From assembly GCA_030699685.1 (NCBI GenBank), contig JAUYLJ010000054.1, forward strand, positions 309 to 64,308: a DNA stretch of 64,000 nucleotides, written 5' to 3'. The notes under the pieces are model-generated. The model saw only the letters and a list, made by a program, of their open reading frames with translations, made no database searches and was not told where the DNA came from. Origin of the DNA: a bacterium. Lineage in GTDB: Bacteria; Patescibacteriota; Patescibacteriia; JAHIZJ01. Within the stretch, counting starts at the first letter, position 1; every line of letters begins with the position of its first letter. Made by a program: the position numbers and the translations under genes. Shown one piece after another: positions 3,456 through 28,103 of the stretch.

Positions 3456-3548
3456 AGATCATCGTTTCGGGAGTAGTTCGGCCGGTAGAACCCCGTACAA
3501 CTGCTATGTAGTTTATGGGGCAAGCGCTCCGCATTTTGTCCGCCGTAC

Positions 3549-3620
3549 TCCGAGGTAGTTCAATGGTAGAACGCTGCACTGTTAATGCAGATGTTGGAGG
3601 TTCGAATCCTCCCCTCGGAG
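3549..3620 (+). tRNA. tRNA-Asn (anticodon GTT)
   Basis: 72-nt cloverleaf folded by hand: acceptor TCCGAGG/CCTCGGA, D-arm GTTC-AATGGTA-GAAC, anticodon arm CTGCA-CTGTTAA-TGCAG, T-arm GGAGG-TTCGAAT-CCTCC, discriminator G. Confidence 0.93.
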
Positions 3621-3679
3621 CTCGGCGGGAAAGGCTCCGGCGCTTACGTGAAATCTTTAGGCTATGCTACAATGCCAGC

Positions 3680-4432
3680 ATGAACCAGAAAATATTCAAT
3701 TCCAGAAAGGAAAAACTTGATACGCTGGTTGAGGGTCGCAATGGAAATTTGACCATTGTGATGGTCCATGGCTTTGGGACCAGCAAAGACGAGAACGCGA
3801 GAATGTTTATCGACATTTCCAAACGTCTTTCCGCTTACGGGCGGATCGTGCGTTTTGACTTTGCCGGTTACGGCCAGAGTGAAGGTCGTCAGGAGGACGT
3901 CAATCTGAATACTATGGCCGATGACCTGAAGTCAGTACTTGATTGGGTTCGAAAGAAATATGGAGGCCGTATTATGATCCTGGCGCATTCTTTTGGCACG
4001 CTTGTCACTCGCTATCTCTCTCCGGATAGTATTGAGAAGACTATTTTTACCGGTATCACTCCACCTGACGTGAAAGCGCATATGGAGTCAACCATGAAGA
4101 GAATTCAAAGTCGGGTCGGAGGAAGCCTGAGCGAAAACGGGGTAAGCATCTATCCCCGAAAAGATGGAGAAGTACAAAAAATCGGCAGTAGTCATTGGAA
4201 AATTCTTCGAGAAGTCGACCCTCTGAGATTGGCCAAGATACTCGCTCAAAAGACAGACTTAATCATCATTAAGCCCATGCAAGATGAGATTGTCGGCGGT
4301 GAAGCTACGACGGAGCAATATAAAACAATTTCCGGGATCAGATTCATCGAGCTTGACGGAGATCATAACTTTACCTCTCAGCGTGATAGGAGGGGATTGT
4401 TAAATACTCTGGAACGACTGATTGCTGGTTAG
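3680..4432 (+). CDS. alpha/beta-fold hydrolase
   Basis: HGFG oxyanion motif and nucleophile elbow AHSFG; the ORF-track start at 3515 runs through the tRNA and is an artefact; the real start is ATG 3680. Confidence 0.7.
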   Translation: MNQKIFNSRKEKLDTLVEGRNGNLTIVMVHGFGTSKDENARMFIDISKRLSAYGRIVRFDFAGYGQSEGRQEDVNLNTMADDLKSVLDWVRKKYGGRIMILAHSFGTLVTRYLSPDSIEKTIFTGITPPDVKAHMESTMKRIQSRVGGSLSENGVSIYPRKDGEVQKIGSSHWKILREVDPLRLAKILAQKTDLIIIKPMQDEIVGGEATTEQYKTISGIRFIELDGDHNFTSQRDRRGLLNTLERLIAG

Positions 4433-4433
4433 C

Positions 4434-4467
4434 ATAAAAAAAGCGTGTCACTTTTCTTCTGCCACGC
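4434..4467 (-). terminator. putative terminator of the copper operon (AAGCGTG...CACGCTT stem, T7 tract)
   Basis: 7-bp stem overlapping the copZ stop, followed by TTTTTTT on the minus strand; the loop is long (~15 nt). Confidence 0.45.
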
Positions 4468-4684
4468 TTGCCGTGTAGTCCAGTTTTTGTATTTCAGCAA
4501 TAATCGCATCGAGACTTTGCTGTCCAGGATCATAGGCTACGATAGTGGTAGATTTCGCGTAGCTTGTTTCACTTTGGATAACTCCTTCAAGATCCTCTAG
4601 GGCTCCGTCAATATTCATGGCGCAGCTCACGCAATGCATTCCCTGAATGTTCAGCTTCACTCGTTGTTCGTTTGTGTGTTCCAT
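4448..4684 (-). CDS. copZ: copper chaperone CopZ (HMA domain, GMHCVSCA)
   Basis: 78 aa with the MxCxxC heavy-metal-associated motif. Confidence 0.85.
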   Translation of the reverse strand: MEHTNEQRVKLNIQGMHCVSCAMNIDGALEDLEGVIQSETSYAKSTTIVAYDPGQQSLDAIIAEIQKLDYTASVAEEK

Positions 4685-4700
4685 AGATTAATCCAATATT

Positions 4701-5768
4701 TTATATAACCTCGAAGGTTCCCGTGTACATTCCCATCGAACAAGCGAATACATATTGCCCCTTCTTGGTTGGGGTAAAACGGAATGTTTCGCTGTCGGTT
4801 GGTTCCAACAACGCATAGATGCCAAATTGCCGGAAAGTGAAAGCGGAAGCGCAGCTATAAACGTCATTTGTTTCCACGGTGAGCTCTACCGGCACTCCGG
4901 CTTTAACTTTGATACGATTTGGTTTGTATCCATAATCCTGTACTTCAATATGTACTTTTTGGATCTCGGCTATGCTGATATCGGGACTGGAAAAATTCAC
5001 CTCTTCGCCATTGGATGAAGCGGATCCATTCGCGGAAAAAGCCAGCTGTATCCGCTGCCAGGAAATTGGCGCGTCCACTGCTTGCAAAACTCCGTTGAAG
5101 CTGTAGAGGGACATTCCCACCAACAGCAAGGCGGCAAATTTCAAAAATTTCACTTGCAACGATTCACTAAGTTTCGCCGTGGCAATGCCGATAAACCCGA
5201 AAATCGGCGCCGTGCCCAGCACGAAAACCATCATAATCAGCGCTCCCGTGATCGGATTTCCGCTGTTGATCGCCAGGACTTCCATGGCCTGGGTCACCCC
5301 GCAGGGAATAAAAACAGTGAAAACCCCGAGGATGGTCGGCGCGAAGAACGATGACGCCTTGCTGGATTGTCGCACCTTTCTTTGGATAAATTTCGGCGGT
5401 TGAAAAGCCACGAAACGGAAGATCGGGTGGACGTTGAAAAGATTAAGCGCCGTGGTCAGCATAAAGGCGGCGGCCAAAACCTGGAAAAAAATTTTCACGC
5501 CAAAACTGAGGGTGAAAACCGATCCCAAAGCTCCCAAAAGGAAACCAAGTATGCCGTGGACTACGAGTTTTGACCCCAGAAACATGACCACCGGCAGCCA
5601 GTCGCCCTTGTCAAAAGAACGAGACGCCAATTCCGGTGAATCGGGGCTGTCCCGAAAATCCTTTCGTTTTTGATTGGCGATAATGGACGCCAACAATCCT
5701 CCCTGAACGGCCAAGCACGCCAACCCGCCGGTTGTCAGGCCAGTCAGAAAAACAACCCAAAGGTTCAT
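4701..5768 (-). CDS. membrane permease (TauE/SafE-like) fused to a C-terminal cupredoxin-like metal-binding domain
   Basis: N-terminal [17 protein letters not shown] helix motif and multiple TMs; C-terminal ~90 aa beta-sandwich with Cys/Met/His (YSCASAF...[10 protein letters not shown]). Confidence 0.5.
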
Positions 5769-7972
5769 TGTTTTTGCAAGTTAACTTTTTTAAGTCTTAG
5801 CGCGTTTGCCACCACGGAAACGCTTGATAGCGCCATAGCCAGGCTGGCCAGCATGGGATTGAGCTGAGTGCCGGTCAGCGGATACAAGACGCCCATGGCC
5901 ACCGGTATCAAAATGATGTTATAGCTAAATGCCCAGACAAGGTTCTGGCGAATGTTACGCATGGTCGCTTTGGCCAAGGTGATGGACTGGGGAATCAGTG
6001 AAATATCACCTCGCAACAGCGTTATTCCGGCTGTTTCCATGGCGACATCCGTACCTTCTCCCATGGCGATTCCCACGTCAGCCACCGCCAAGGCCGGCGC
6101 GTCATTGATCCCGTCACCGGACATGGCTACGACATTCCCTTTCGATTGAGAATCTTTGATCCAGGCGGCTTTTTCTTCCGGTGAGACGCGGGCTCTCCAG
6201 GTCGTGATGGAAACGGTATTGGCGATCGCTTCAGCTGTTTTTTTATTGTCACCCGTGAGCATCACTGGCTCAATGCCCATCTGACTTAGCCTGGCAACCG
6301 CCGAAGCCGATTTTTCTTTTACCTGATCAAATACGGCGATATACCCCAAATATCTATTTTCTTCAGAAAGTAGCAAGACGCTTTCCCCGAGCGATTCATG
6401 TTCCGTTATCTTTCTCTGCTGTTCTTCAGTGATCTTTCCGTCATGTTGGAGAATAAAATCCAGAGTGCCGAGGCGATATTCTTTTCCCTTGATTGTGCCC
6501 AAGACACCTTTGCCCGACTCCGCGTGAAACGATTCAACGGGCTGAAGCGATAGTTTCATCGCATTTGTCTTTTGTATCACGGCTCCTGCCAGAGGGTGTT
6601 CTGATTGTTGCTCGAGGGAAGCGGCCAGGATCAATACCTCATCGGAAGAGTACGAATTAACCGCGGGTTTTCCTTCCGTCAGCGTGCCGGTTTTATCCAA
6701 CACCACTTGCGTTATGGCTTGAGACCGCTCAAGCGACTCCGCGTTGCGTATCAGGATGCCTTTTTTAGCTCCCCGGCCGATTCCCACGGTGAGCGAGGTG
6801 GGCGTGGCTAGGCCCAGGGCGCAGGGACAGGCGATAATCAAGACGGAAATCATACTAACCAGCGCGCGCGGCAGGCTCGGCTCTGGTCCAAAAATAATCC
6901 AGGCGATAAACGTAATTATCGACAGCGCTATCACGATTGGGACGAAATAGGACGAAATAGTGTCTACGAGTTTTTGGATTGGAGGTCGCGAACCTTGAGC
7001 CTCGCGAACCATTTGGACAATCCGTGAAAGTTTGGTGTTTTCCCCGACTACCGTCGCTCGCATTTCAAACGATCCTGAGGAATTCATCGTCGCCGCGAAG
7101 ACCGCGTCAGATGGCTTTTTTTCTACCGGGATACTTTCTCCCGTTAACATGCTTTCATCTACGGAACTGCCCCCCTTGAATACTATGCCGTCAACGGGAA
7201 TTTTTTCTCCAGGCTTTACCAATATTTCATCGCCAATCATTACGTTTTCGACTGGCTGATCTTGCCATTCTCCGTTTTTTCTGACATGGGCGATAGTTGG
7301 CTGGAGTTCTAATAATTCTTTGATGGCGGCGGAGGCCTGTCCCTTGGCCCTGGTTTCCAGGTATTTTCCCAATAATATTAATGTCAGAATAGTGGCCGAA
7401 GTTTCAAAGTACACGTACTGAGGAAGGCCCGAGTCTCCCAAACTGCCGGAAAAAACCGCGACAACAAGGGAGTAGCCATATGCCACCGAAGTTCCCAGGG
7501 CGACCAGGGTGTCCATATTGGTCGTTTTATTTTTCGCGGCCGACCAGGCGCTTAAGTAAAAATCCTTTCCCAGCCAGAATTGAATTGGAGTGGCCAAGGC
7601 CAGCATGAAGAGGGGATTGGCCATAAACGCGGGAGCGGCCGGGACCATAGCGGCAAAAAGAAGAACGGCTGACAAAATTATTCCGACAAATAATTTTCGC
7701 CGAAGCGAGTTCAGCCGGATAGCGTGATCATGTTCCATGGTCGAGTCGGTATCGCCGTGATCAATATGCGCTTTGTAGCCAAGCTTCCCCACAATATCGG
7801 CAATGCCGTCTGTTTTAATGGCTTTTGAGTCGTACGTGACATGGGCGTGTTCATTGCCATAATTTACCGTTGCTTGCGAAATGCCGTCTGCTTTTAACAA
7901 CTTTCTTTGTATATTGGCAGCGCAGGAGGCGCAATGCATTCCCGAAACGTAGAAATTAATTTTTTCAGACAT
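5765..7972 (-). CDS. copA: copper-translocating P-type ATPase CopA
   Basis: HMA domain [11 protein letters not shown] motif ([13 protein letters not shown]), [15 protein letters not shown]; start taken at MSEKINF, overlapping the regulator stop by 8 nt. Confidence 0.9.
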
Positions 7973-8441
7973 ATTTTTTCGGATGAAGAATAAAATTCTT
8001 TCGGCAGCCTGAAGCGCAAAAGTAGTAGGTAGTGCGTTTATACTCATGGGTAAAGACCGCGTGACGTGGTGAAACTGACATACCGCAAACTGGATCGGTA
8101 ATTTTTGGCACGGATGGAGCACTCAGCTTATGGCGCAAAGGCCGAATGCTTTTTCTATCAGAAAGAACCTCATGGATATTCTCCAGCAGTTTAATGAATG
8201 TCGGATGCGCGAGACGATATAATTTTTCTTTGCCTTGGCGCTTTGTTACCACTATCCCGTTTCTTCGCAAAACCTGAAGATGCTGGCTCACGTTCGACTG
8301 CGACATTCCAGACATGTGGATAAGTTCAGTGACGGTCACTGAGGTATCGCACAAAATACGCAATATCTCAATGCGTTTTTGATTAGCGAGCGCTTTCAAC
8401 AGCCGTGTGTATTGTTGGTACGTTGAAGAAGACATATTCAA
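7965..8441 (-). CDS. ArsR/SmtB-family metalloregulator with C-terminal YHS/TRASH copper-binding domain
   Basis: wHTH ...[12 protein letters not shown]...[18 protein letters not shown]...; C-terminal DPVCGM...YYFCASGCR (TRASH/YHS); TTG or ATG (8435) start. Confidence 0.75.
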
Positions 8442-9035: not shown

Positions 9036-9917
9036 ATGATGCTGTCAAAACACCCAGTCAACGGCCCAGACCGGCCAACCCGCCGTGTCAACAGCCGGAT
9101 AATGATCCGGGGGATGCTTGATCTGATCCGCTGGTTCAGTCTGTCGGGAATGGCGCTGCTTGCCTTGGTCAGCCTTCGTCTGGCTGGCCACTCTCCGTCC
9201 TCTGCCTGGTCAATCTACTTTGTCAGCGGCATCATCGTGGTAGCCGCCGCGGGATACGTCTGGAATGACTACCTTGATTACCGGATTGACGCAATCAACA
9301 AGCCTTCCCGTCCGCTGGTTCAGGGACTGATCAGCCTGCGTTTCGCCCGGACGATAGCCATTCTTTTGGGAGCGATTGGGTTGGTGCTGTATGTTCAACT
9401 CGGCATTTTTTTCTTCCTCTACAGTCTCTTTGTCGTGGTCGTACTGGCATTCTACAGCCGGGCGCTGAAAGACCGGCATGGAGTAATCGGTAATCTGGCC
9501 GTGGCGTTGCTGCTGGCCAGTATCCCGCTCACCGTCGGGGCCAAGCACGGCTGGACCCTGCCTTTGGCTGTTCTGGCCGGAGTTACGTTCTGTCTGGGCT
9601 TTGCCCACGAAGTGATGAAGGATGCGGAAGACGTGCCCGGTGACCGGAGGGGCGGAAGAAAAACTCTCGCCACCCACTACTCGCGCCTCGCCTTGGAAGG
9701 GGCGATCTCAACATCTCTGGCCTTCACGCTGGCGATTGGCCTCGTGCCGCTTGCTTTGGGATCGGCTCAATCGAAGCTCCTCGTTATTCCTGAAACAATG
9801 CTCGTAGCCAGCTTTGTCTTTTGGAAATTCGGAGGAATGAGGGATGCCGTATTTCGTCACCTGCTCAAGCTTAACGCTTTTGCCTACGTTATTGCCTATT
9901 TCATCGCCGGAGGGTGA
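9036..9917 (+). CDS. UbiA-family prenyltransferase (DGGGP synthase-like)
   Basis: NDYLDYRID (NDxxDxxxD) Mg-binding motif, 8-9 TM helices, second Asp-rich region HEVMKDAEDVPGD. Confidence 0.75.
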   Translation: MMLSKHPVNGPDRPTRRVNSRIMIRGMLDLIRWFSLSGMALLALVSLRLAGHSPSSAWSIYFVSGIIVVAAAGYVWNDYLDYRIDAINKPSRPLVQGLISLRFARTIAILLGAIGLVLYVQLGIFFFLYSLFVVVVLAFYSRALKDRHGVIGNLAVALLLASIPLTVGAKHGWTLPLAVLAGVTFCLGFAHEVMKDAEDVPGDRRGGRKTLATHYSRLALEGAISTSLAFTLAIGLVPLALGSAQSKLLVIPETMLVASFVFWKFGGMRDAVFRHLLKLNAFAYVIAYFIAGG

Positions 9918-10705
9918 CGATGGACAATGTGTGGAATTATCTTGAGCAACGAATCAGGGAATACGGTTGCGGTTTTCTGGCGATTGTTGACCCTGACAAG
10001 TATGTACTGTCGGATCTTTCCCGACTGTGCCGGGCGTTGAGAGCCGCAAACGTTGATGGGGTGCTGGTCGGAGGCACGATTCTAAAAAAAGGTCACGAGC
10101 ACTACGGTAAGATTGTGCTCGCATTGCGCCAGGGGTTGCCGGACGCGCCTGTCATTATCTTCCCTGGCGGTTCGGGCATGTACCGGTCATTGGTGCCGGG
10201 CGCGGACGCTATCTTCTTTCGTCAGCTGATCAGCGGGACGAACCGGAAGTATCTCTACACAGAACAATGCCTGGCTGGTATAAGGGCGAAACGGATGGGA
10301 ATCGAAGCAATCGCGGTGGGATACGTGTTTGTGCGTTCGCGGGCCATTCAAAGAGCGGCGGACATTACCAATACAACCCCGGTGCGTGAAGCAGACACGG
10401 AACGTGCCGTTGGGCTAGCAATACTCTCGGAGTCGACAGGAAAGCGCCTCATTTGGTTCGAGCGGGGAAGCAACGCCGAAGCACCTGTTCCCGAGCCGTT
10501 TATCAAAACCGTCTCGGCCCATCCCTTGGTGGAACTACCCATCATGGTTAGCGGCGGACTTCGCACTGCGGAAAATGTTCGAGCAGTGGTGCGCGCCGGT
10601 GCCAGGCTGACGGGAGTGGGAACGGTGATTGAACAAAGCAAGGATATTGAAGCTACGCTTAGTCCCTTGGTAAGTGCCGCTCATTGGCGCGCGTCGTCGG
10701 CTTGA
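9914..10705 (+). CDS. geranylgeranylglyceryl-/heptaprenylglyceryl-phosphate synthase family (GGGPS/PcrB)
   Basis: FLAIVDPDK, VLVGGT, IFPGG and MVSGGLRTAENV motifs match the PcrB/GGGPS TIM-barrel family; start overlaps the UbiA stop (ATGA). Confidence 0.7.
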   Translation: MTMDNVWNYLEQRIREYGCGFLAIVDPDKYVLSDLSRLCRALRAANVDGVLVGGTILKKGHEHYGKIVLALRQGLPDAPVIIFPGGSGMYRSLVPGADAIFFRQLISGTNRKYLYTEQCLAGIRAKRMGIEAIAVGYVFVRSRAIQRAADITNTTPVREADTERAVGLAILSESTGKRLIWFERGSNAEAPVPEPFIKTVSAHPLVELPIMVSGGLRTAENVRAVVRAGARLTGVGTVIEQSKDIEATLSPLVSAAHWRASSA

Positions 10706-12871: not shown

Positions 12872-12901
12872 TTGACTAAACACACTACAAGGTGTAGTGT
12901 G
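12872..12901 (+). promoter_or_regulatory. promoter (TTGACT-17-TAGTGT) with embedded 9-bp perfect palindrome CACACTACA-agg-TGTAGTGTG
   Basis: Inverted repeat at 12881-12901 overlaps the -10 region, 20 nt upstream of the first gene of the 12921-16998 operon. Confidence 0.5.
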
Positions 12902-12920: not shown

Positions 12921-13343
12921 ATGAAAGAAAGAAATTTCAAAACGGGAATAGCAGTACTGGTTATAGCATTTCTTGCCTATTCTGTTGTTGGATACTTAGG
13001 CATGAGTCTTACTCACCACTCGCAAGATAATGGGATGTGCCCGCTGGCGCCATTTTTGAATCAATCATGCGGCGTCACCGATATCGCCTCTGCTACAGGA
13101 TTACATCACTTGCTTGGTGGCAAGGCTTTTTTTCAATCCTGGCTCAGTTTTACCACAATCCTGATTGCTGCCGTACTGATGGTGCTTTCTTTCGCGGTCA
13201 TTAGCTCGACTGGGAACAGGCAGGTGGGAAGTTCTTGGTTTTTTTATTTCCAGCATTTCAAGTCGCAATTCAGACGGAAAGCCAATAAAAACTTTCTTCG
13301 CTGGTTAGTTCGAATACAATACGAATCTGCAGCTCCGATATGA
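12921..13343 (+). CDS. hypothetical membrane protein with Cys motifs (MCP...SCG)
   Basis: 140 aa, N-terminal and central TM helices, His/Cys-containing loop THHSQDNGMCPLAPFLNQSCG. Confidence 0.4.
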   Translation: MKERNFKTGIAVLVIAFLAYSVVGYLGMSLTHHSQDNGMCPLAPFLNQSCGVTDIASATGLHHLLGGKAFFQSWLSFTTILIAAVLMVLSFAVISSTGNRQVGSSWFFYFQHFKSQFRRKANKNFLRWLVRIQYESAAPI

Positions 13344-13420
13344 TGGGGTAGTGATGATTCCTATTCCCTTTGCGGAATAGCGCAATGTGCTGCTGCCCCG
13401 TCCGCTAACTGTCGGGGTTT

Positions 13421-13948
13421 TTGTATTTAACAAATCACATCATTATGAAAAAATTGCTTAATAAATACTTCTGGACCAGCGTGGTAGTCACTGTTGTAGT
13501 CTTACTGCTCATTGTGGCGGGCAATAGCGGTCAGGCTGGCCAGCAATCTACCACCGCGGGAGTGCTCACGGTTGCCGAAGCAATGCATGATTTCGGGACT
13601 ATCTCGATGCAAAACGGTACAGTCAGTTATCAGTATGAATTGGTGAACACGGGAACAGAAGCCGTGGTGATACAAGAGGCATATACCTCCTGCATGTGCA
13701 CGACCGCCACGATCATTGACTCGAAAGGAGAGCGTCATGGTGTTTTTGGCATGACGGGGCACGGTCTTCAGCGCAAGGCATCAATCGAAGTTCCGCCGGG
13801 AAAGTCCGTCACCGTTGAAGCGGTGTTCGATCCTGCCGCCCACGGGCCCAGCGGTGTCGGGACTATTGAGCGCACTGTCACGGTGGAAACAAACTCTGAA
13901 TCAGCGTCCGAAGTCAATCTGGACTTCCGCGCAACGGTAACGCGATAA
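13421..13948 (+). CDS. DUF1573 domain protein (secreted/anchored beta-sandwich)
   Basis: N-terminal TM/signal; HDFGTISMQNGTVSYQYELVNTGTEAVVIQEAYTSCMCT matches the DUF1573 core. Confidence 0.55.
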   Translation: MYLTNHIIMKKLLNKYFWTSVVVTVVVLLLIVAGNSGQAGQQSTTAGVLTVAEAMHDFGTISMQNGTVSYQYELVNTGTEAVVIQEAYTSCMCTTATIIDSKGERHGVFGMTGHGLQRKASIEVPPGKSVTVEAVFDPAAHGPSGVGTIERTVTVETNSESASEVNLDFRATVTR

Positions 13949-13950
13949 CA

Positions 13951-14862
13951 ATGGATATATTACTTACCGCCTCCATTCTCGCGGCGTTTCTAGCCGGAGC
14001 GGTGGCGCTCTTTGCTCCCTGCTGCATTACCGTGTTGCTGCCCGCGTACATGGCTTCCGCCTTTCGGCAAAAGCAGAACATGCTTCGGATGACTTTCGTG
14101 TTTTTTGCGGGCATTTCGGTTATCCTGGTGCCGATCGGAATGGGAGCAGCCGGGCTCGCGGCGGTGTTTGAAAATTACCATCGCGAACTCTACATCATCG
14201 GCGGCAGTCTGATGATTGTCTTTGCCGTGATGTCGGTTCTCGGAAAAGGTGTTAGTTTGCTTCCGTCGGTGAAACAAGCTCCAAAAAACCTGAACAAAAT
14301 GGGAGTGAAATCTGTCTTTGTTCTGGGAATATTTTCCGGTGCGGCCACTTCCTGCTGCGCGCCGGTTCTGGCTGGGGCGATGACGCTGGCTGTTATTTCA
14401 GGAGTATTCTGGAAAGGGGTGATAGTAACCTTTGCCTACGTGTTCGGAATGACGCTTCCGCTCTTTTTGACGGCGTATTTCTACGACCGTTTCCGGATCG
14501 AAAAATCTAAGCTGATCAGGGGAAAAATCTTCGAGTGGCGTATTGGCGGAAAACAGCTCTATGTCCACTCCACTAATCTCTTCTCAGGCTTCATTTTCGC
14601 GCTGATGGGCATAGCGTTGCTGGCCGTTGCGCTTTCCGGCAATCCTTTCTGGGCACCTGAGTATCAAGTGGCCATTGGGGAAAACATCACGGAATGGTCG
14701 AAAGGACTATTCACGGCACTGAGCGTTATTCCCGATATCGTTTGGGGGGCTATCGTGATCGGGCTTTTTATCCTGTTTCTCGTGACGGCTCTCAGAAAAG
14801 GTCCGGCATCCTCAAAAGAAAAGACTGAGGATACGCCATCCTGCTGCCGTGATTCATCATGA
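13951..14862 (+). CDS. CcdA/DsbD(SoxV)-like polytopic membrane protein with two vicinal Cys-Cys motifs
   Basis: FAPCCITVLLP in TM1 and ATSCCAPVLAG in a later TM, resembling the paired Cys-in-TM architecture of DsbD/CcdA (DsbD_2-like). Confidence 0.45.
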   Translation: MDILLTASILAAFLAGAVALFAPCCITVLLPAYMASAFRQKQNMLRMTFVFFAGISVILVPIGMGAAGLAAVFENYHRELYIIGGSLMIVFAVMSVLGKGVSLLPSVKQAPKNLNKMGVKSVFVLGIFSGAATSCCAPVLAGAMTLAVISGVFWKGVIVTFAYVFGMTLPLFLTAYFYDRFRIEKSKLIRGKIFEWRIGGKQLYVHSTNLFSGFIFALMGIALLAVALSGNPFWAPEYQVAIGENITEWSKGLFTALSVIPDIVWGAIVIGLFILFLVTALRKGPASSKEKTEDTPSCCRDSS

Positions 14863-15551
14863 AATTAACCACTAAGAAAAAAACCATGAGTAAGTACAAC
14901 GCATTCAATATCGTCGTGGCGAGCGTGTTAACGCTTGTGTTCGCGTTCAATCAGTCGCAGATAAGCATCATCCACACGTTCATGCATCCAGCGGACGCCG
15001 AGGCCAGCCAAGATTCCGCCGTCGAAACTGAAAAAAAGCCTTTGGCGGTTTCCAGTGGACTGGTTGAAGAAGCGATTGCGGCGGCTGTTCCTACCGGCAC
15101 GCCGTCTGTCGAGGGTTCGCAAGGGGTAATTAATTACGGTGCCGAACTAAAGATCAGCTATGATCAGGCGGCTCAGACGATTCCCGTGTTGGCTCCGCAC
15201 GAGCAGGATACCCGGACAGAAAAACTGACTGGCGAACTTCTGGAAAGATACGTTGATGTGGGGAGTAAAACCAGCTGCGAGTACTGCTGCGGCGCCCGGA
15301 CTATGGTGTTCCCTGACGGAAAAAAAGCCTGTGGCTGCGCTCATTCGGCAGCAATGAGAGGCCTGGCCGCCTATTTGCTCGATAATTATGGAGACCAACT
15401 GAGTACTGAGCAGATACTTGAAGAAGTCAACAAAGTTAAAGCAACGTATTTTCCCCGTCAGTCGGCAGAAAAGGTAATAGCCGCTTCACAGGGAGGATCG
15501 ATTGACACATCAGTATTAAATTCGCTTTCGCCCCAGGTCGGGGGCTGTTAA
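14859..15551 (+). CDS. signal-anchored Cys-rich protein ending in -SPQVGGC-COOH
   Basis: N-terminal basic stretch plus TM; CEYCCGARTMVFPDGKKACGC cluster; last residues QVGGC then stop; start overlaps the upstream stop. Confidence 0.5.
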   Translation: MKLTTKKKTMSKYNAFNIVVASVLTLVFAFNQSQISIIHTFMHPADAEASQDSAVETEKKPLAVSSGLVEEAIAAAVPTGTPSVEGSQGVINYGAELKISYDQAAQTIPVLAPHEQDTRTEKLTGELLERYVDVGSKTSCEYCCGARTMVFPDGKKACGCAHSAAMRGLAAYLLDNYGDQLSTEQILEEVNKVKATYFPRQSAEKVIAASQGGSIDTSVLNSLSPQVGGC

Positions 15552-15592
15552 CAAGCAAAGGTTCGAATAATAATCACAATTAACGCACAACA

Positions 15593-15910
15593 ATGACTGA
15601 CCAAAAACATTTTTGCACGAAGGTTCATCTTGATGACATTCTCCATCAGGAACAGCTCGAAAAAAAAGAAGAGCAAAAACGGAAATTTCGCTGGGATACC
15701 AATAGTATTCTTTCCGGCGTTATGGCCGTCCTGCTGGTAGTGAGTTTGGTTCAGGCGGTTCAGCTGTCCCGAGTTAAAAACATAGTATCGGCGCAGGAAA
15801 CTAATGCAGTAACCAAGGTCGCGCCGTCAGCAAACGCGGGCCAACAGCCAACCGCGCCTTCTTCAGCCAGCGGAACTAAGGCTTTGCCGGCACAAGTAGG
15901 GGGATGTTAA
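15593..15910 (+). CDS. small signal-anchored protein ending in -PAQVGGC-COOH (paralogous C-terminus)
   Basis: 105 aa, single TM, Ala/Ser/Pro-rich tail ending QVGGC then stop, identical to the C-terminus of the preceding gene. Confidence 0.5.
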   Translation: MTDQKHFCTKVHLDDILHQEQLEKKEEQKRKFRWDTNSILSGVMAVLLVVSLVQAVQLSRVKNIVSAQETNAVTKVAPSANAGQQPTAPSSASGTKALPAQVGGC

Positions 15911-16497
15911 GGATGGGCAAAGAAAGAATACTCAGCTGGGTGCTTGTGGTGTTGGCCCTTGCTAGCCTTCTCTGGACCGTCATAAGCTTTATCAATAGCC
16001 CCTCGGACGCAAAAAGTTTTTCCGGCGAAGAGGAGGACTTTGCCCGGGCGCTTGCCGACGAACTGCCAGACAAGTGTCAGACGCCTGAAGGCTACACCGA
16101 TGAAGAATGGCTCGAGCACATGGGCCATCATCCAGATCGTTATCAAGAATGCCTCAATGTTGCGGAAGCTGACGCGGCGGATCCAGGGTACCAGACGATA
16201 TCGGCGGATGATCTTGCCGCCATGATGCCATACAAGGATTTCACCATGATTGACGTCCATGTACCGGAACAGAAGCATATCTCGGGAACGGATGCTGTCA
16301 TACCGTATGACGATATTGCCGGCTACATCGACGAGCTCCCCAGCAATAAAAACGCGAAGATACTGTTATATTGCCGTTCGGGCAGCATGAGCGCCCAGGC
16401 GGCGGAAACTCTCGCTCAGATGGGATACACGAATGTCGCGCACTTGGCCGGAGGAACGAACGCATGGACTAATGCCGGCTATGAACTTGAGGACTAA
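15904..16497 (+). CDS. membrane-anchored rhodanese-domain sulfurtransferase
   Basis: N-terminal TM anchor; C-terminal rhodanese fold with active-site loop LYCRSGSMS and AHLAGG. Confidence 0.75.
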   Translation: MLRMGKERILSWVLVVLALASLLWTVISFINSPSDAKSFSGEEEDFARALADELPDKCQTPEGYTDEEWLEHMGHHPDRYQECLNVAEADAADPGYQTISADDLAAMMPYKDFTMIDVHVPEQKHISGTDAVIPYDDIAGYIDELPSNKNAKILLYCRSGSMSAQAAETLAQMGYTNVAHLAGGTNAWTNAGYELED

Positions 16498-16500
16498 GAA

Positions 16501-16998
16501 GTGATGATTTTTTCCGAAACAAGTCGTCGGAATGTGCCCGCGCGGTCTGTAGCGTGGGGTTCGGTGGCCGCGACAGTATTGTTCGGGCTATTCGCCGGAA
16601 TAGTCAGACTGGCTGAAGGAAACTGGCAGGCGGTGAGGATTCAGCTGGAGGATAACGGCGCATTCATCGTGTTACTGGCACTGGGTTTCGGCGTCCAACT
16701 TGGCCTGTGGTACTATCTGAAAACGGTTCGGAAAAGCCAGTCTGGAAAATACAACAGACTGGCTTCCGGGGCGGGCGCTTCTTCCACCACTTCCATGCTC
16801 GCGTGCTGCAGCCATTATCTCGTTAACGTGTTTCCTTGGCTGGGACTGGCCAGTGTCAGCGCGCAATTTATGCAGTACCAGAGGGAAATTTTGCTGATAG
16901 GAATCAGTATTAATCTCCTCGGTATTGCCTATATGCTTCGACATGTCTCACACTATCACCAGTCTATAAAAGCTTGTCCGAAGATTGAGTCAGCGTGA
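16501..16998 (+). CDS. hypothetical membrane protein with intramembrane Cys-Cys motif (LACCSHY)
   Basis: 165 aa, 4 TM helices, vicinal CC in a helix; last gene of the plus-strand block. Confidence 0.4.
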   Translation: MMIFSETSRRNVPARSVAWGSVAATVLFGLFAGIVRLAEGNWQAVRIQLEDNGAFIVLLALGFGVQLGLWYYLKTVRKSQSGKYNRLASGAGASSTTSMLACCSHYLVNVFPWLGLASVSAQFMQYQREILLIGISINLLGIAYMLRHVSHYHQSIKACPKIESA

Positions 16999-17002
16999 TG
17001 GG

Positions 17003-18295
17003 TTACGCTTCTCTCAAATAGCCCCAGGTATGCAATTTGTCGTTATCTTCGTACCAGCGGTCGCCGATATCCATGCGATAGTACATATTGGGAATCAGTA
17101 TATTCTGAATGCGGTTGTAGGCTTGTTGCTGGGCCTGTTTCATCGTGGTGCCCGTACCGGCGACAATTAATGCCACTCCCGCCGATCCTGTCACAACCCA
17201 TTGATCGTTGGTGAGTTTGACGTCTTCAATATGGATCCCCTCAAGGTTCTTTTTCTTGAAAACCACCGTCGCTCCCTTGGAATACGAATCAAAGGTTTTT
17301 TTATCACGATAGGGGAAAGGCGGAACCACGACGCGAATGCCTATTTGAAAGCCCTTTTTCACCTTCAGGTGAGGGTCGCGTCCATAGGCCAGATCGGCCA
17401 AGAACTCACCGATCGGAGTGATCATCCCTTCTTGCTGAACACTGATGGTCGGATAGCCGAAGCGAGGGGTGAACTCAAGGGGATAAATTCCATTGCCATT
17501 GACGATGCAGTTAAGATCGACATACCCCACGAAGCGCTCTTCGGCCAGCTTACTCTCCATCTTCCCGATCGTTTGATTGAAGAGCCGGTTTGGACCCGAC
17601 CAGAACATCGTCGCTCCCATGTCGCCAGTCGATGGGCCGAGGTTTCCCGGAAACAGCTTCTTAAATTCAAAATTTACGTTGATGGGCTGAACAAACTGCT
17701 TGCCGTTAAAGAATGCTCCTACAGCGATCTCTACGCCGCTCACCCGCTTCTGGATCTGGAAGACTTTTATATGACTACTCCAAACGCGCTTATACGCTTC
17801 TAGGACGCGGATGACATCGCTGCCATCTTCTTCTTGGCCGACAAAAAGGAGCCGTTTGATATTTTGTGCCTCGCCGCTAGGCTTGATAACGTATTTTTCC
17901 GGATGTTCGTGGACGTAACGAATGGCGTCATCAAAGTTCGTAAATTCTTGATAGGAAAGGATGGGAATGCCAAAGCGTTTGAGCTCTTCCTGCCCGAAAG
18001 ACCGGTCTTCTTCAAGTCTGTCAGTGTAAGGTGTGCCGCCGATTACCGCTTTTCCTTGCCGGCGAAGTTTGTCTGCTTTGACCCCCATCCCCAGCGTGTC
18101 GTCAAAGATGATTACATCAGCCCAGTCGACCCGCTTTCGCCAGTCGTCAGTTTTCGGCACGAAACCGTCGGCAATGTCCGCTTCCAGCTTATTCTCAATA
18201 TCATACAGGACGTCGTGGCCCTCTTTATGCGCCTGCCAGGCGATATCGCCGATCAGTCCGTCGTCGGAAACGAAAAGAAATTTGATGGGTTTCAT
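17003..18295 (-). CDS. ATP-grasp enzyme, PurD (phosphoribosylamine-glycine ligase)-like
   Basis: ~430 aa with PurD-like domain order, YVIKPSGEAQ nucleotide-binding strand and C-terminal PurD_C-like region; start taken at MKPIKF (ATG 18295). Confidence 0.55.
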   Translation of the reverse strand: MKPIKFLFVSDDGLIGDIAWQAHKEGHDVLYDIENKLEADIADGFVPKTDDWRKRVDWADVIIFDDTLGMGVKADKLRRQGKAVIGGTPYTDRLEEDRSFGQEELKRFGIPILSYQEFTNFDDAIRYVHEHPEKYVIKPSGEAQNIKRLLFVGQEEDGSDVIRVLEAYKRVWSSHIKVFQIQKRVSGVEIAVGAFFNGKQFVQPINVNFEFKKLFPGNLGPSTGDMGATMFWSGPNRLFNQTIGKMESKLAEERFVGYVDLNCIVNGNGIYPLEFTPRFGYPTISVQQEGMITPIGEFLADLAYGRDPHLKVKKGFQIGIRVVVPPFPYRDKKTFDSYSKGATVVFKKKNLEGIHIEDVKLTNDQWVVTGSAGVALIVAGTGTTMKQAQQQAYNRIQNILIPNMYYRMDIGDRWYEDNDKLHTWGYLREA

Positions 18296-18452
18296 GGCAA
18301 TGAAGTAATACAAAACAAAACCACTGGCGATGATTCGGTGTTTTGTTTAAATTCGTCTGTCATTAATATTGATACTGTTCCCACAGTATACAGCAATCGC
18401 TTATTGAATACCATACTTGTGCGTCCATCATTCCGACGCTATACTTCACCGT

Positions 18453-27712: not shown

Positions 27713-28103
27713 TGGTGGAGATGAGGGGACTTTCACCCCTGTCTGAACAGGTATTTGCCAGCCGTCTACCAATGTAGTCTATTTCTTTGAGTTCGGGCGT
27801 CAAGCATCAAAACAGACAAAAGTGCTTATCGTCCTAGTTTCCGGTTGCCCACGATGATCCTCGGAAACAGCCGGATCATCAGCCCTGAAATGAATGACAC
27901 CCGATGGCCCCCTATCAGGAGTCAGAGGATCGGATGGTTACCGCGATTTAGGCGGCAACAGGAGCGAGATTGAATGACGCAAAAGCGTTCTTCAATTTCG
28001 CGAAATTTGACTTGGCATTTGTCGATTTTCCAGCTTTTTACAGAGCTCTGGTCTCTGATTGGCTAGTTGGCAAAGGTGCTATCCGTCGATTTATAACATC
28101 CCC
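27713..28103 (-). ncRNA. ssrA: tmRNA (ssrA) downstream of smpB
   Basis: 5-prime GGGGAUGUUAUAAAUCGACGGAUAG resembles the tmRNA consensus GGGGCUGAUUCUGGAUUCGACGGGAU. The 3-prime ...AGGGG-UGAAAGU-CCCCU-CAUCUCC-A-CCA pairs with the 5-prime end and includes a G3-U70 wobble. A GUAAAAAGC element and an internal tag-like ORF GCG UCA UUC AAU CUC GCU CCU GUU GCC GCC UAA ((A)ASFNLAPVAA) are present. An ORF-free 390-nt span next to smpB fits a tmRNA. Confidence 0.78.

Follow-up and report, generated by a model that had tools for sequence, protein, structure and literature searches.

Organization of the operon

We analyzed a window of 64,000 nucleotides (nt) of DNA (contig JAUYLJ010000054.1 of assembly GCA_030699685.1, positions 309–64,308) from a bacterium of the Patescibacteriota, which belongs to the Candidate Phyla Radiation (CPR). 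At positions 12921–16998 of this window lie seven co-directional open reading frames (ORFs) on the + strand, designated g1 to g7. An earlier note on this DNA had taken the region for an eight-gene, Sox-like relay of sulfur or persulfide. Our analysis indicates that the most likely role of the operon is to shield cell-surface thiols in copper or thiol stress, and not to relay sulfur. The operon joins two conserved sub-modules, one consisting of g1, a DUF1573 protein and a CcdA protein with paired cysteines (CC), the other of g4, g5, the N-terminal domain of g6 (g6N) and g7. The shared C-terminal tail of g4 and g5, the pairing of these two genes and most of their partners recur in more than 80 independent loci, which is far beyond chance. 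The genes and the upstream elements are listed below.

Positions 12872–12877, + strand: candidate -35-like hexamer TTGACT, read from the sequence
Positions 12884–12898, no strand: putative operator palindrome ACTACA-agg-TGTAGT with a TACA-N3-TGTA core; extended form CACACTACA-agg-TGTAGTGTG
g1, 12921–13343, + strand: 140 aa, two transmembrane (TM) helices, outward loop HH..C-x9-C..HH, cytoplasmic FLRWL tail
g2, 13421–13948, + strand: 175 aa, signal-anchored immunoglobulin (Ig)-like DUF1573 domain with SCMCT (CxC)
g3, 13951–14862, + strand: 303 aa, DsbD_TM/CcdA family, FAPCC in TM1 and ATSCCAPV in TM4
g4, 14859 or 14886–15551, + strand: 230 or 221 aa, signal-anchored CcmH-like helical domain, CEYCCG...ACGCAHSAAMRG, ending in ...LSPQVGGC-COOH
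g5, 15593–15910, + strand: 105 aa, one TM helix and a low-complexity linker, ending in ...LPAQVGGC-COOH
g6, 15904–16497, + strand: 197 aa, new N-terminal domain followed by a rhodanese
g6N domain, 16021–16173, + strand: C-x2-P-x-GYT-x3-W-x2-H-[LM]-x-HHPD-x-Y-x2-C
g6 rhodanese domain, 16189–16497, + strand: active-site loop CRSGSMS
g7, 16501–16998, + strand: 165 aa, about four TM helices, intramembrane ACCSHY in TM3

The eighth gene of the earlier note does not exist, because the gaps of 77 and 41 nt are too short to hold one. The tight spacing it described is real: g2 and g3 are 2 nt apart, g6 and g7 are 3 nt apart, and g5 and g6 overlap by 7 nt. The g3/g4 overlap is 4 nt; with the NCBI start of g4 at 14886, which is likely the correct one (221 aa), the two genes are instead 23 nt apart. 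The motifs that had been quoted (FAPCC, TSCCAP, CRSGSMS, ACCSHY and the ends ...SPQVGGC and ...LPAQVGGC) are all present, as is the small membrane protein with a Cys loop, which is g1. Of the single promoter and operator that were also claimed, the operator-like palindrome is present. It lies 37 nt 5' of the g1 ATG, just downstream of the TTGACT hexamer, and is the sole zero-mismatch match within the window; a consensus scan of the region did not call a full sigma-70 promoter at TTGACT, which leaves the hexamer as a candidate -35-like element. Terminator-like matches within the operon occur at chance frequency.

Three proteins of the operon have Pfam matches above the gathering score, namely g2 (DUF1573), g3 (DsbD_TM) and g6 (Rhodanese), in agreement with the families assigned before. 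Searches of Pfam, NCBIfam and PDB sequences gave no match for g1, g4, g5 or g7. Topology was predicted from hydropathy and the positive-inside rule, a crude rule compared with a trained predictor. By this rule g1 has its Cys loop outside the membrane, g2 its DUF1573 domain, g4 and g5 their bodies and tails, and g6 both of its domains, so the outward orientation proposed for the two tails and the rhodanese is upheld.

A pair of exported proteins with a C-terminal VGGC

Within the window, g4 and g5 are the only ORFs with a GGC C-terminus. A search of a set of 5.8 billion proteins returned 309 homologues of g4, and a profile search of 1.84 billion representatives returned 325 clusters at 50% identity; g4 therefore founds a small, specialized family. 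A scan of GTDB species genomes found it in 403 species-level genomes. The hosts are CPR bacteria (Buchanan-, Falkow-, Kerfeld-, Magasanik- and Veblenbacteria, Microgenomates, Saccharibacteria and Parcubacteria) and DPANN archaea (Woese-, Pace-, Aenigm-, Micr-, Iain- and Nanohaloarchaea), together with Hydrothermarchaeota and one metagenome-assembled genome (MAG) of the Desulfobacterales. Some MAGs labeled "uncultured Gammaproteobacteria" hold g4 islands of the CPR type, with Penicillinase_R (PenR)/M56, CC-type CcdA and DUF1573 genes (L007, L011, L032, L036, L051, L058, L062, L067, L071 and L072). The labels of these MAGs, assembled under third-party annotation (TPA), look wrong.

The tail on which the earlier note had built is conserved in orthologues: [QM]VGGC-COOH ends about 112 of 120 g4 homologues (~93%) among the matches listed. 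In 79 of 88 cases from 87 loci, g4 is followed on the same strand by g5, a short protein in which a low-complexity linker joins a TM helix to the terminal [QM]VGGC. The pentapeptide is internal in none of the proteins from the 87 loci, and the stop codons after the tail Cys (TAA, TAG and TGA) occur in background proportions. VGGC is therefore a true C-terminus. The same mix of stop codons rules out a recoded UGA after the tail Cys, as in selenocysteine insertion or read-through. A sortase-like signal is ruled out as well, since neither a TM helix nor a charged segment follows the motif.

In an alignment of 52 g4 sequences, the invariant residues are C131, E132, C134, C135, G145, C149, C151, H153, M157, R158, G159, K185, F189, P190, G219, G220 and C221. 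The invariant Cys, His and Met residues are classic Cu(I) ligands. None of the 52 members matches a Pfam family, PF03918 (CcmH) included, and a PDB sequence search with g4 returned nothing. An AlphaFold2 model built with the alignment (predicted local distance difference test, pLDDT, 90.8 overall) is all-helical apart from short strands. The tail residues 211–220 have a pLDDT of 92, which suggests a tail that is docked on the domain instead of moving freely.

Foldseek found nothing in PDB for the model. Its best structural match is the periplasmic three-helix domain of CcmH, with CxxC lying over CxxC, and the model displays the three-helix periplasmic fold of CcmH/NrfF. At the sequence level, hhalign of the g4 profile against an alignment of 11 CcmH/NrfF sequences (E. 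coli and ten plasmid-borne genes) gave a weak match (P = 0.022, probability 2%). Over its 88 columns CE[YF]CC falls on RCxxC, S-x-AMRG on S-x-x-x-A-x-dLR, and tDeqIL on sd-eI; against the single E. coli CcmH sequence the g4 alignment was not significant. We therefore treat g4 as CcmH-like in fold, but not as an established CcmH family member. It is probably a thiol-disulfide oxidoreductase of CcmH-like chemistry with an inserted CGC-H-M loop.

Among long relatives of g4, FKBP_C is the only fused domain that was found. In the Desulfobacterales MAG (L083:9062-10477, and also P0305), an N-terminal FKBP-type peptidyl-prolyl isomerase is fused to g4, and a DUF1573 gene lies upstream.

Two further protein groups share features with g4. 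A paralogous family of 308–326 aa (L088:6954-7934 and L089:6927-7853), with the core RPCCGN...FPDCNHGMAMLGL and the C-terminus ...GGCGV, is encoded directly downstream of DUF1573 and CC-type CcdA genes. Its match to the g4 profile is weak and confined to L089 (3.7e-6), and it has no significant Pfam match. PCYCGC proteins occur in five g4 islands (L070:2532-3038, L078:9252-9758, L022:5680-6225, L064:1546-1977 and L044:1376-1933). Their profile matches the CcmH/NrfF alignment with 64% probability (E = 6e-5), which suggests that the PCYCGC domain is CcmH-like. A single superfamily may comprise CcmH, the PCYCGC domain and g4.

The CcdA-type transporter and its partners

The g3 protein scores 38.8 bits against PF02683 DsbD_TM (cut-off 27.1) and aligns by phmmer with Thermus thermophilus CcdA (PDB 5vkv; E = 1.6e-8, residues 7–218). 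The first Cys of FAPCC and the first of TSCCAP align on the catalytic Cys of 5vkv, and the second Cys adjoins each. Both FAPCC and A-T-[SA]-CCAPV are invariant in the 120 closest homologues (55–64% identity; those with a name are annotated CcdA). The extra adjacent Cys is a peculiarity of the g3-type CcdA subfamily. In the Buchananbacteria locus L001 a Redoxin domain (CYPAC) is joined to the CC-type TM domain, and a separate Redoxin gene follows a CC-type CcdA in the Microgenomates locus L016. Because of this fusion and adjacency, a Rosetta-stone pattern, g3 is expected to deliver electrons and not metal. The same pattern is indirect support for the proposed passage of electrons through g3, which would run from thioredoxin in the cytoplasm to partners outside.

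Three independent CPR loci that were selected by way of g3 (L087–L089) repeat the order seen in the window, in which a g1 homologue (E = 8e-10 and 9e-7) is followed by DUF1573 and an abutting CC-type CcdA. All three carry a CsoR-family repressor and DUF5676, two have an adjacent HMBD P-type ATPase, one has DUF302 and one DUF305. DUF1573 is a regular partner of CcdA. The domain of g2 scores 58.3 bits against PF07610 (cut-off 26.1, E = 8e-16), contains SCMCT and weakly matches the OS_HP2 (seleno)protein family. Selenoprotein forms of DUF1573 bear a UGC motif (PMC9312934). This motif would correspond to the CxC site of g2, pointing to redox chemistry.

A variant of this domain lies in the Hydrothermarchaeales locus L022, where four consecutive DUF1573 genes surround g4. 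One protein (L022:2435-3250) is a fusion of DUF1573 with an N-terminal CPCCG...CCG domain, and Pfam recognizes its DUF1573 portion only; by eye, the CPCCG...CCG domain resembles the CcmH-like core of g4.

Genomic neighborhood and regulation

The neighborhood of g4 was counted in 28 full-flank loci, which have at least 6 kb on both sides and span ~14–20 kb. Counts for DUF1573 and rhodanese across loci come from single-pass searches.

g5: 25 of 28 loci
Any DsbD-like membrane protein: 17 of 28
g7: 17 of 28 (13 of the CCxH type, 4 of the GCPxCG type)
Multi-thioredoxin-fold protein (TrxLong): 16 of 28
P1B ATPase: 15 of 28
BlaI-like repressor with an M56 (BlaR1-like) protein: 14 of 28
DUF1573: 10 of 28

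Most of the neighboring ATPases bear Cu(I) signatures (CPC in 24 of 35, NX6YNX4P in 23 and MxxSS in 21). Genomes of ~1 Mb usually hold one or two P1B pumps, and on that estimate the presence of a pump in about half of loci of 14–20 kb would amount to a more than ten-fold enrichment. The window has its own copper-efflux operon (4448–8122, − strand) 5 kb upstream of the seven-gene operon, with the following genes.

4448–4684, − strand: CopZ-like HMA protein (Pfam)
4701–5768, − strand: DsbD_2-Cupredoxin_1 membrane protein (Pfam)
5765–8122, − strand: CopA P1B-1 ATPase with the HMA motif CASC and CPC, NX6YNX4P and MALSS

These copZ, DsbD_2-cupredoxin and copA gene types adjoin g4 or a CC-type CcdA in many other loci. 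The DsbD_2-cupredoxin fusion, sometimes with an added HMA domain, is an uncharacterized protein that adjoins CopA in many loci of both CPR and DPANN.

Thioredoxin-fold, DsbA-like and Redoxin proteins are frequent neighbors of g4. Other recurrent neighbors are ArsR-like regulators, small "CC" membrane proteins and cupredoxins. CsoR-family (CsoR/RcnR-like) regulators are common; those beside CopA have the fingerprint x-C-H-C, and those encoded immediately 5' of the g1 or g4 operon have H-C-H-H. Persulfide-sensing CstR lacks the metal-ligand His. The CsoR-like regulators keep this His at the Y position, and were thereby ruled out as CstR-type persulfide sensors.

A second type of control is suggested by operators and by Penicillinase_R and Peptidase_M56 gene pairs, which adjoin g4 in 35 of 81 loci. 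In CPR loci of the BlaI-like/M56 kind, the palindrome CTACTACA-N3-TGTAGTAG stands 29–52 nt 5' of g4, of a DsbA-like first gene or of the PenR gene; it occurs 13 times in 1.25 Mb, the window operator included. In DPANN, 17 of 19 intergenic regions between a divergent PenR gene and g4 hold TTACA-Nx-TGTAA palindromes. Operators of BlaI, MecI and CopY are characterized by a TACA/TGTA core. The BlaI-like repressors lack CxCx4CxC, by which metal binding of the CopY type was ruled out. The M56 proteins (L041, L068, L071, L072 and L079; for example L072:8776-9888) are devoid of a penicillin-binding domain, and have a conserved ACGC after TM1 and Cys-rich C-terminal tails. Judged from these motifs they may be thiol or metal sensors, and BlaR1-like proteases without a penicillin sensor appear to control a thiol or metal regulon.

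Another candidate regulator, a protein of ~170 aa, is encoded beside g4 in 24 loci, mostly of DPANN (for example L034:9019-9531 and L003:5274-5780, both on the − strand). Its first TM helix, at the N-terminus, is followed by an exposed C-x(9-11)-C-x-H loop, another TM helix and a winged-helix domain; the protein is a candidate one-component membrane-bound sensor-regulator.

The thiol-redox side of this neighborhood would also suit a housekeeping role in oxidative folding or disulfide isomerization of surface proteins such as pili, adhesins or S-layer, in which g3 feeds CcmH-like, DUF1573 and FKBP-type foldases without a specific metal link. CcdA itself, the CcmH-like fold, the thioredoxin-fold and DsbA-like neighbors and the FKBP fusions are all in keeping with such a role, and CxC motifs can mimic the activity of protein disulfide isomerase. 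Dedicated repressors and operators are at odds with it, however, as are copper-efflux genes adjacent far more often than expected, and it would leave unexplained both a protein with nothing but a single-Cys tail and the His/Met-rich invariant sites. We regard a purely housekeeping function as unlikely.

The g6 and g7 proteins

The g6N domain, which has no Pfam family, shows six invariant residues in alignment (C58, W69, H72, H75, H76 and C83). It is found in 36 of 81 loci (16 of 28 full-flank), mostly as a stand-alone protein of 75–130 aa. The C-terminal half of g6 is, by sequence, a rhodanese with a catalytic Cys loop (PF00581, E = 5.8e-13, 49.6 bits against a cut-off of 22.2). PspE is among its closest NCBIfam relatives, and PDB entries 6mxv and 2jtq (PspE) are also related. 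The CRSG[NSG]MS loop was seen in only eight related loci besides the window, in CPR and DPANN both. Rhodanese genes are present in 10 of 81 loci and in 6 of the 28 with full flanks (~12–21%), and the fusion to g6N exists in the window and two other loci only. Of the synteny that the earlier note had expected, the core and the two sub-modules do recur elsewhere, and the rhodanese is an accessory part.

These counts bear directly on the sulfur relay, in which the rhodanese would load sulfane sulfur on the terminal Cys of g4 and g5 in the manner of SoxY, and g3 would act like SoxV to keep the carrier reduced. The glycine-flanked terminal Cys is formally like the GGCGG arm of SoxY (PMC5336275, PMC6067878), and the paralogues of L088 and L089 end in GGCGV. 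In addition, an exported rhodanese with a conserved loop is shared by CPR and DPANN loci, and rhodanese/DsbD fusions are known as the NCBIfam family TsoB. On the other hand, most loci manage without a rhodanese and g6N usually stands apart from it; g4 is helical and CcmH-like, with no SoxY or SoxZ match in Pfam; the annotated neighbors of six related loci include no Sox or other sulfur-oxidation genes; and regulators and neighbors are of the metal or thiol-stress type, including CsoR-like proteins with the His absent from CstR. Fold, neighbors, regulators and the rarity of the rhodanese thus speak against the relay proposed earlier, which we consider quite improbable, and the SoxY-like carrier survives as an analogy only.

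The g7 family was found in 41 loci, mostly with CCxH[HYN]; a minority has GCP[ST]CG at the same position. A protein homologue search with g7 returned g7 alone, and 5 of 29 members show sub-threshold similarity to Cation_efflux. In database matches, g3 and g4 are 100% identical and g7 is 99% identical to "Q8Q20_" proteins encoded on a single contig of 65.6 kb. Together with g3, this protein raises the possibility of Mer-like handling of soft metals (Hg, Ag or Cd, or Cu uptake), whereby the arms would capture metal outside the cell like MerP and deliver it to the intramembrane CC pairs in g7 and g3 for transport across the membrane. Such a scheme would account for the vicinal CC pairs inside the TM helices of both proteins, for the small MerF-like "CC" membrane proteins and ArsR-like regulators of related loci, and for the weak Cation_efflux similarity of g7. 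Flexible C-terminal Cys tails are also what MerA uses to acquire Hg. Nevertheless, no MerA, MerP, MerT, MerC or MerF match was obtained in the operon (Pfam, NCBIfam, E ≤ 1), and no MerA was seen among the neighbors examined. Moreover, g3 aligns as a CcdA, retains the catalytic Cys and is of a type found fused to Redoxin domains, and a minority of g7 proteins swap CC for CPxC, a motif of the redox type. A Mer-like system is, in our estimate, quite improbable as well.

Proposed function

We favor a stress-inducible extracytoplasmic module that reduces thiols and buffers Cu(I), similar to Scs or CcdA–CcmH and equipped with new single-Cys arm proteins, and give this reading about an even chance of being right. 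The anatomy, the conservation, the families of g2, g3 and g6, the fold match of g4 and the genomic context are directly supported, and from them we infer the following mechanism. The g3 protein would draw reducing equivalents from thioredoxin in the cytoplasm and pass them across to the outer face. There it would keep reduced the CxC of DUF1573, the CxxCC/CGC-H-M of g4, the C...HxxHH...C and the rhodanese of g6, and the CC of g7. The terminal Cys of g4 and g5 would serve as a small, flexible, glycine-flanked mobile thiolate, able to dock on the groove of the g4 domain or to enter the outward cavity of the CcdA-type protein and the CC sites in the membrane. The arm might perform thiol-disulfide exchange, or bind Cu(I) in two-coordinate fashion and hand it off. 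Because g4 and g5 almost always co-occur, their arms may work together, by forming a disulfide with each other or a bis-thiolate site for Cu(I). As a result, surface thiols would be shielded and repaired, and Cu(I) leaving through the neighboring CopA would be buffered. Expression would be held by a BlaI-family repressor on the TACA-N3-TGTA operator, with induction via a BlaR1-like membrane sensor that exposes CGC.

A bolder form of this proposal assigns g4 and g5 to a new class of membrane-tethered single-Cys swinging-arm carriers, common to both ultra-small episymbiotic radiations and comparable to SoxY and DsrC in how they would work while being unrelated to them. The tail would thread into the cavities that g3 and g7 open to the outside, as well as into a groove of the CcmH-like domain, and the cargo would be a mixed disulfide, Cu(I) or sulfane sulfur. 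We offer it tentatively, as a possibility that we doubt more than we believe.

Several observations weigh against the thiol-reducing and Cu(I)-buffering module. No BlaI/PenR, M56 or CsoR gene is encoded in the 64-kb window, even at E ≤ 10, and the regulation of the window operon was for this reason read from the operator alone. There is also no thioredoxin-fold gene within the window operon. The co-location with CopA is a statistical association and not proof, and the H-C-H-H regulators upstream of some modules look to be of the Ni/Co type rather than the Cu type. A pure copper/redox model does not explain the recurrent rhodanese with its unusual CRSGxMS loop. Finally, soft-metal transporters such as MerT and MerF typically have vicinal CC pairs in their membrane helices, and g3 or g7 might, given such pairs, move metal rather than electrons.

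Literature searches on the tail motif and on DUF1573 with rhodanese returned no description of the system, and none was found in Pfam or NCBIfam, in line with the novelty supposed by the earlier note. The module is one of the few multi-gene systems common to the CPR and DPANN radiations, and is drawn largely from families absent from Pfam and NCBIfam (g1, g4, g5, g6N and g7). These two radiations make up a large share of microbial diversity and live attached to other cells, and their envelope biochemistry is almost uncharacterized. If the thiol-reducing and Cu(I)-buffering module is real, it would show how organisms without an outer membrane and with minimal metabolism guard exposed thiols from copper, a stress that CPR and DPANN cells may meet at the host interface, and the single-Cys arms would be a new addition to the CcdA/DsbD repertoire.

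Other features of the window

A UbiA-family prenyltransferase gene (9036–9917, + strand) overlaps a gene for a PcrB-family protein (9914–10705, + strand) of the geranylgeranylglyceryl phosphate (GGGP)/heptaprenylglyceryl phosphate (HepGP) synthase family. Together, UbiA and PcrB are an ether-lipid gene pair of archaeal style that is here encoded by a CPR bacterium. The convergent gene downstream of the operon (17003–18313, − strand) encodes a PurD-like ATP-grasp protein that scores 118 bits against a purD equivalog cut-off of 288, and may not be a canonical glycinamide ribonucleotide (GAR) synthetase. A tmRNA (27713–28103, − strand) and a tRNA-Asn (3549–3621, + strand) confirm a cellular genome; the tRNA lies inside the mechanical ORF 3515–4432, which is thus probably spurious at its 5' end.

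Comparison with known systems

The branch from CcdA/DsbD through CcmG to CcmH offers two points of likeness, as g3 is a CcdA homologue and g4 is structurally closest to the CcmH domain. Unlike cytochrome c maturation systems, the operon and the neighbors examined contain no CcmF, CcmE, CcmI or cytochrome c genes. The g4 protein also differs from CcmH itself in its inserted CGC-H-M loop and its VGGC tail, both absent from CcmH, and fails the Pfam CcmH model.

With SoxYZ and SoxV the module shares a glycine-flanked Cys at the extreme C-terminus of an exported protein, a CcdA-type partner and, sometimes, a nearby rhodanese. SoxY is an Ig-like beta-sandwich, however, whereas g4 is helical, and the tails of g4 and g5 stop at the Cys instead of forming a GGCGG arm and belong to proteins with an N-terminal TM anchor. 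No SoxZ, SoxAX or SoxB is encoded in the operon or among annotated neighbors, and the context is copper and thiol stress. A role of g3 as SoxV finds no Sox-family match among the operon proteins (Pfam and NCBIfam) or in the Pfam-annotated neighbors of six loci.

The regulatory part resembles BlaI/BlaR1, MecI/MecR1 and CopY in the Penicillinase_R/M56 pairs beside g4 and in the TACA...TGTA operators, that of the window included. The M56 proteins differ in exposing CGC and Cys-rich segments in place of a penicillin-binding sensor, the BlaI-like repressors of g4 loci differ from CopY in having no CxCx4CxC metal site, and the window itself has no regulator gene.

By analogy, the closest precedent would be Scs of Proteobacteria, in which the DsbD-like ScsB feeds the thioredoxin-like ScsC and ScsD; the system provides tolerance to copper, and its ScsC is a tight binder of Cu(I) (PMC10907172, PMC3322552, PMC8900818). 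The candidate counterparts in the module are a CcdA-type transporter and exported Cys-motif proteins, with a genomic association with CopA and CsoR. ScsB has three domains; g3, by contrast, is a minimal CcdA with additional vicinal Cys. An equivalent of ScsC or ScsD with a thioredoxin fold is absent from the window operon, a thioredoxin-fold gene being present in 16 of the 28 full-flank loci, and g4, g5, g6N and g7 have no Scs counterpart. Regulation here is apparently BlaI-like, in contrast to CpxR or CueR for Scs. The general logic of an extracytoplasmic reducing pathway fed by CcdA/DsbD and linked to copper is already known, and what is new is the cross-domain gene island of CPR and DPANN and its control of the BlaI/BlaR1 type.

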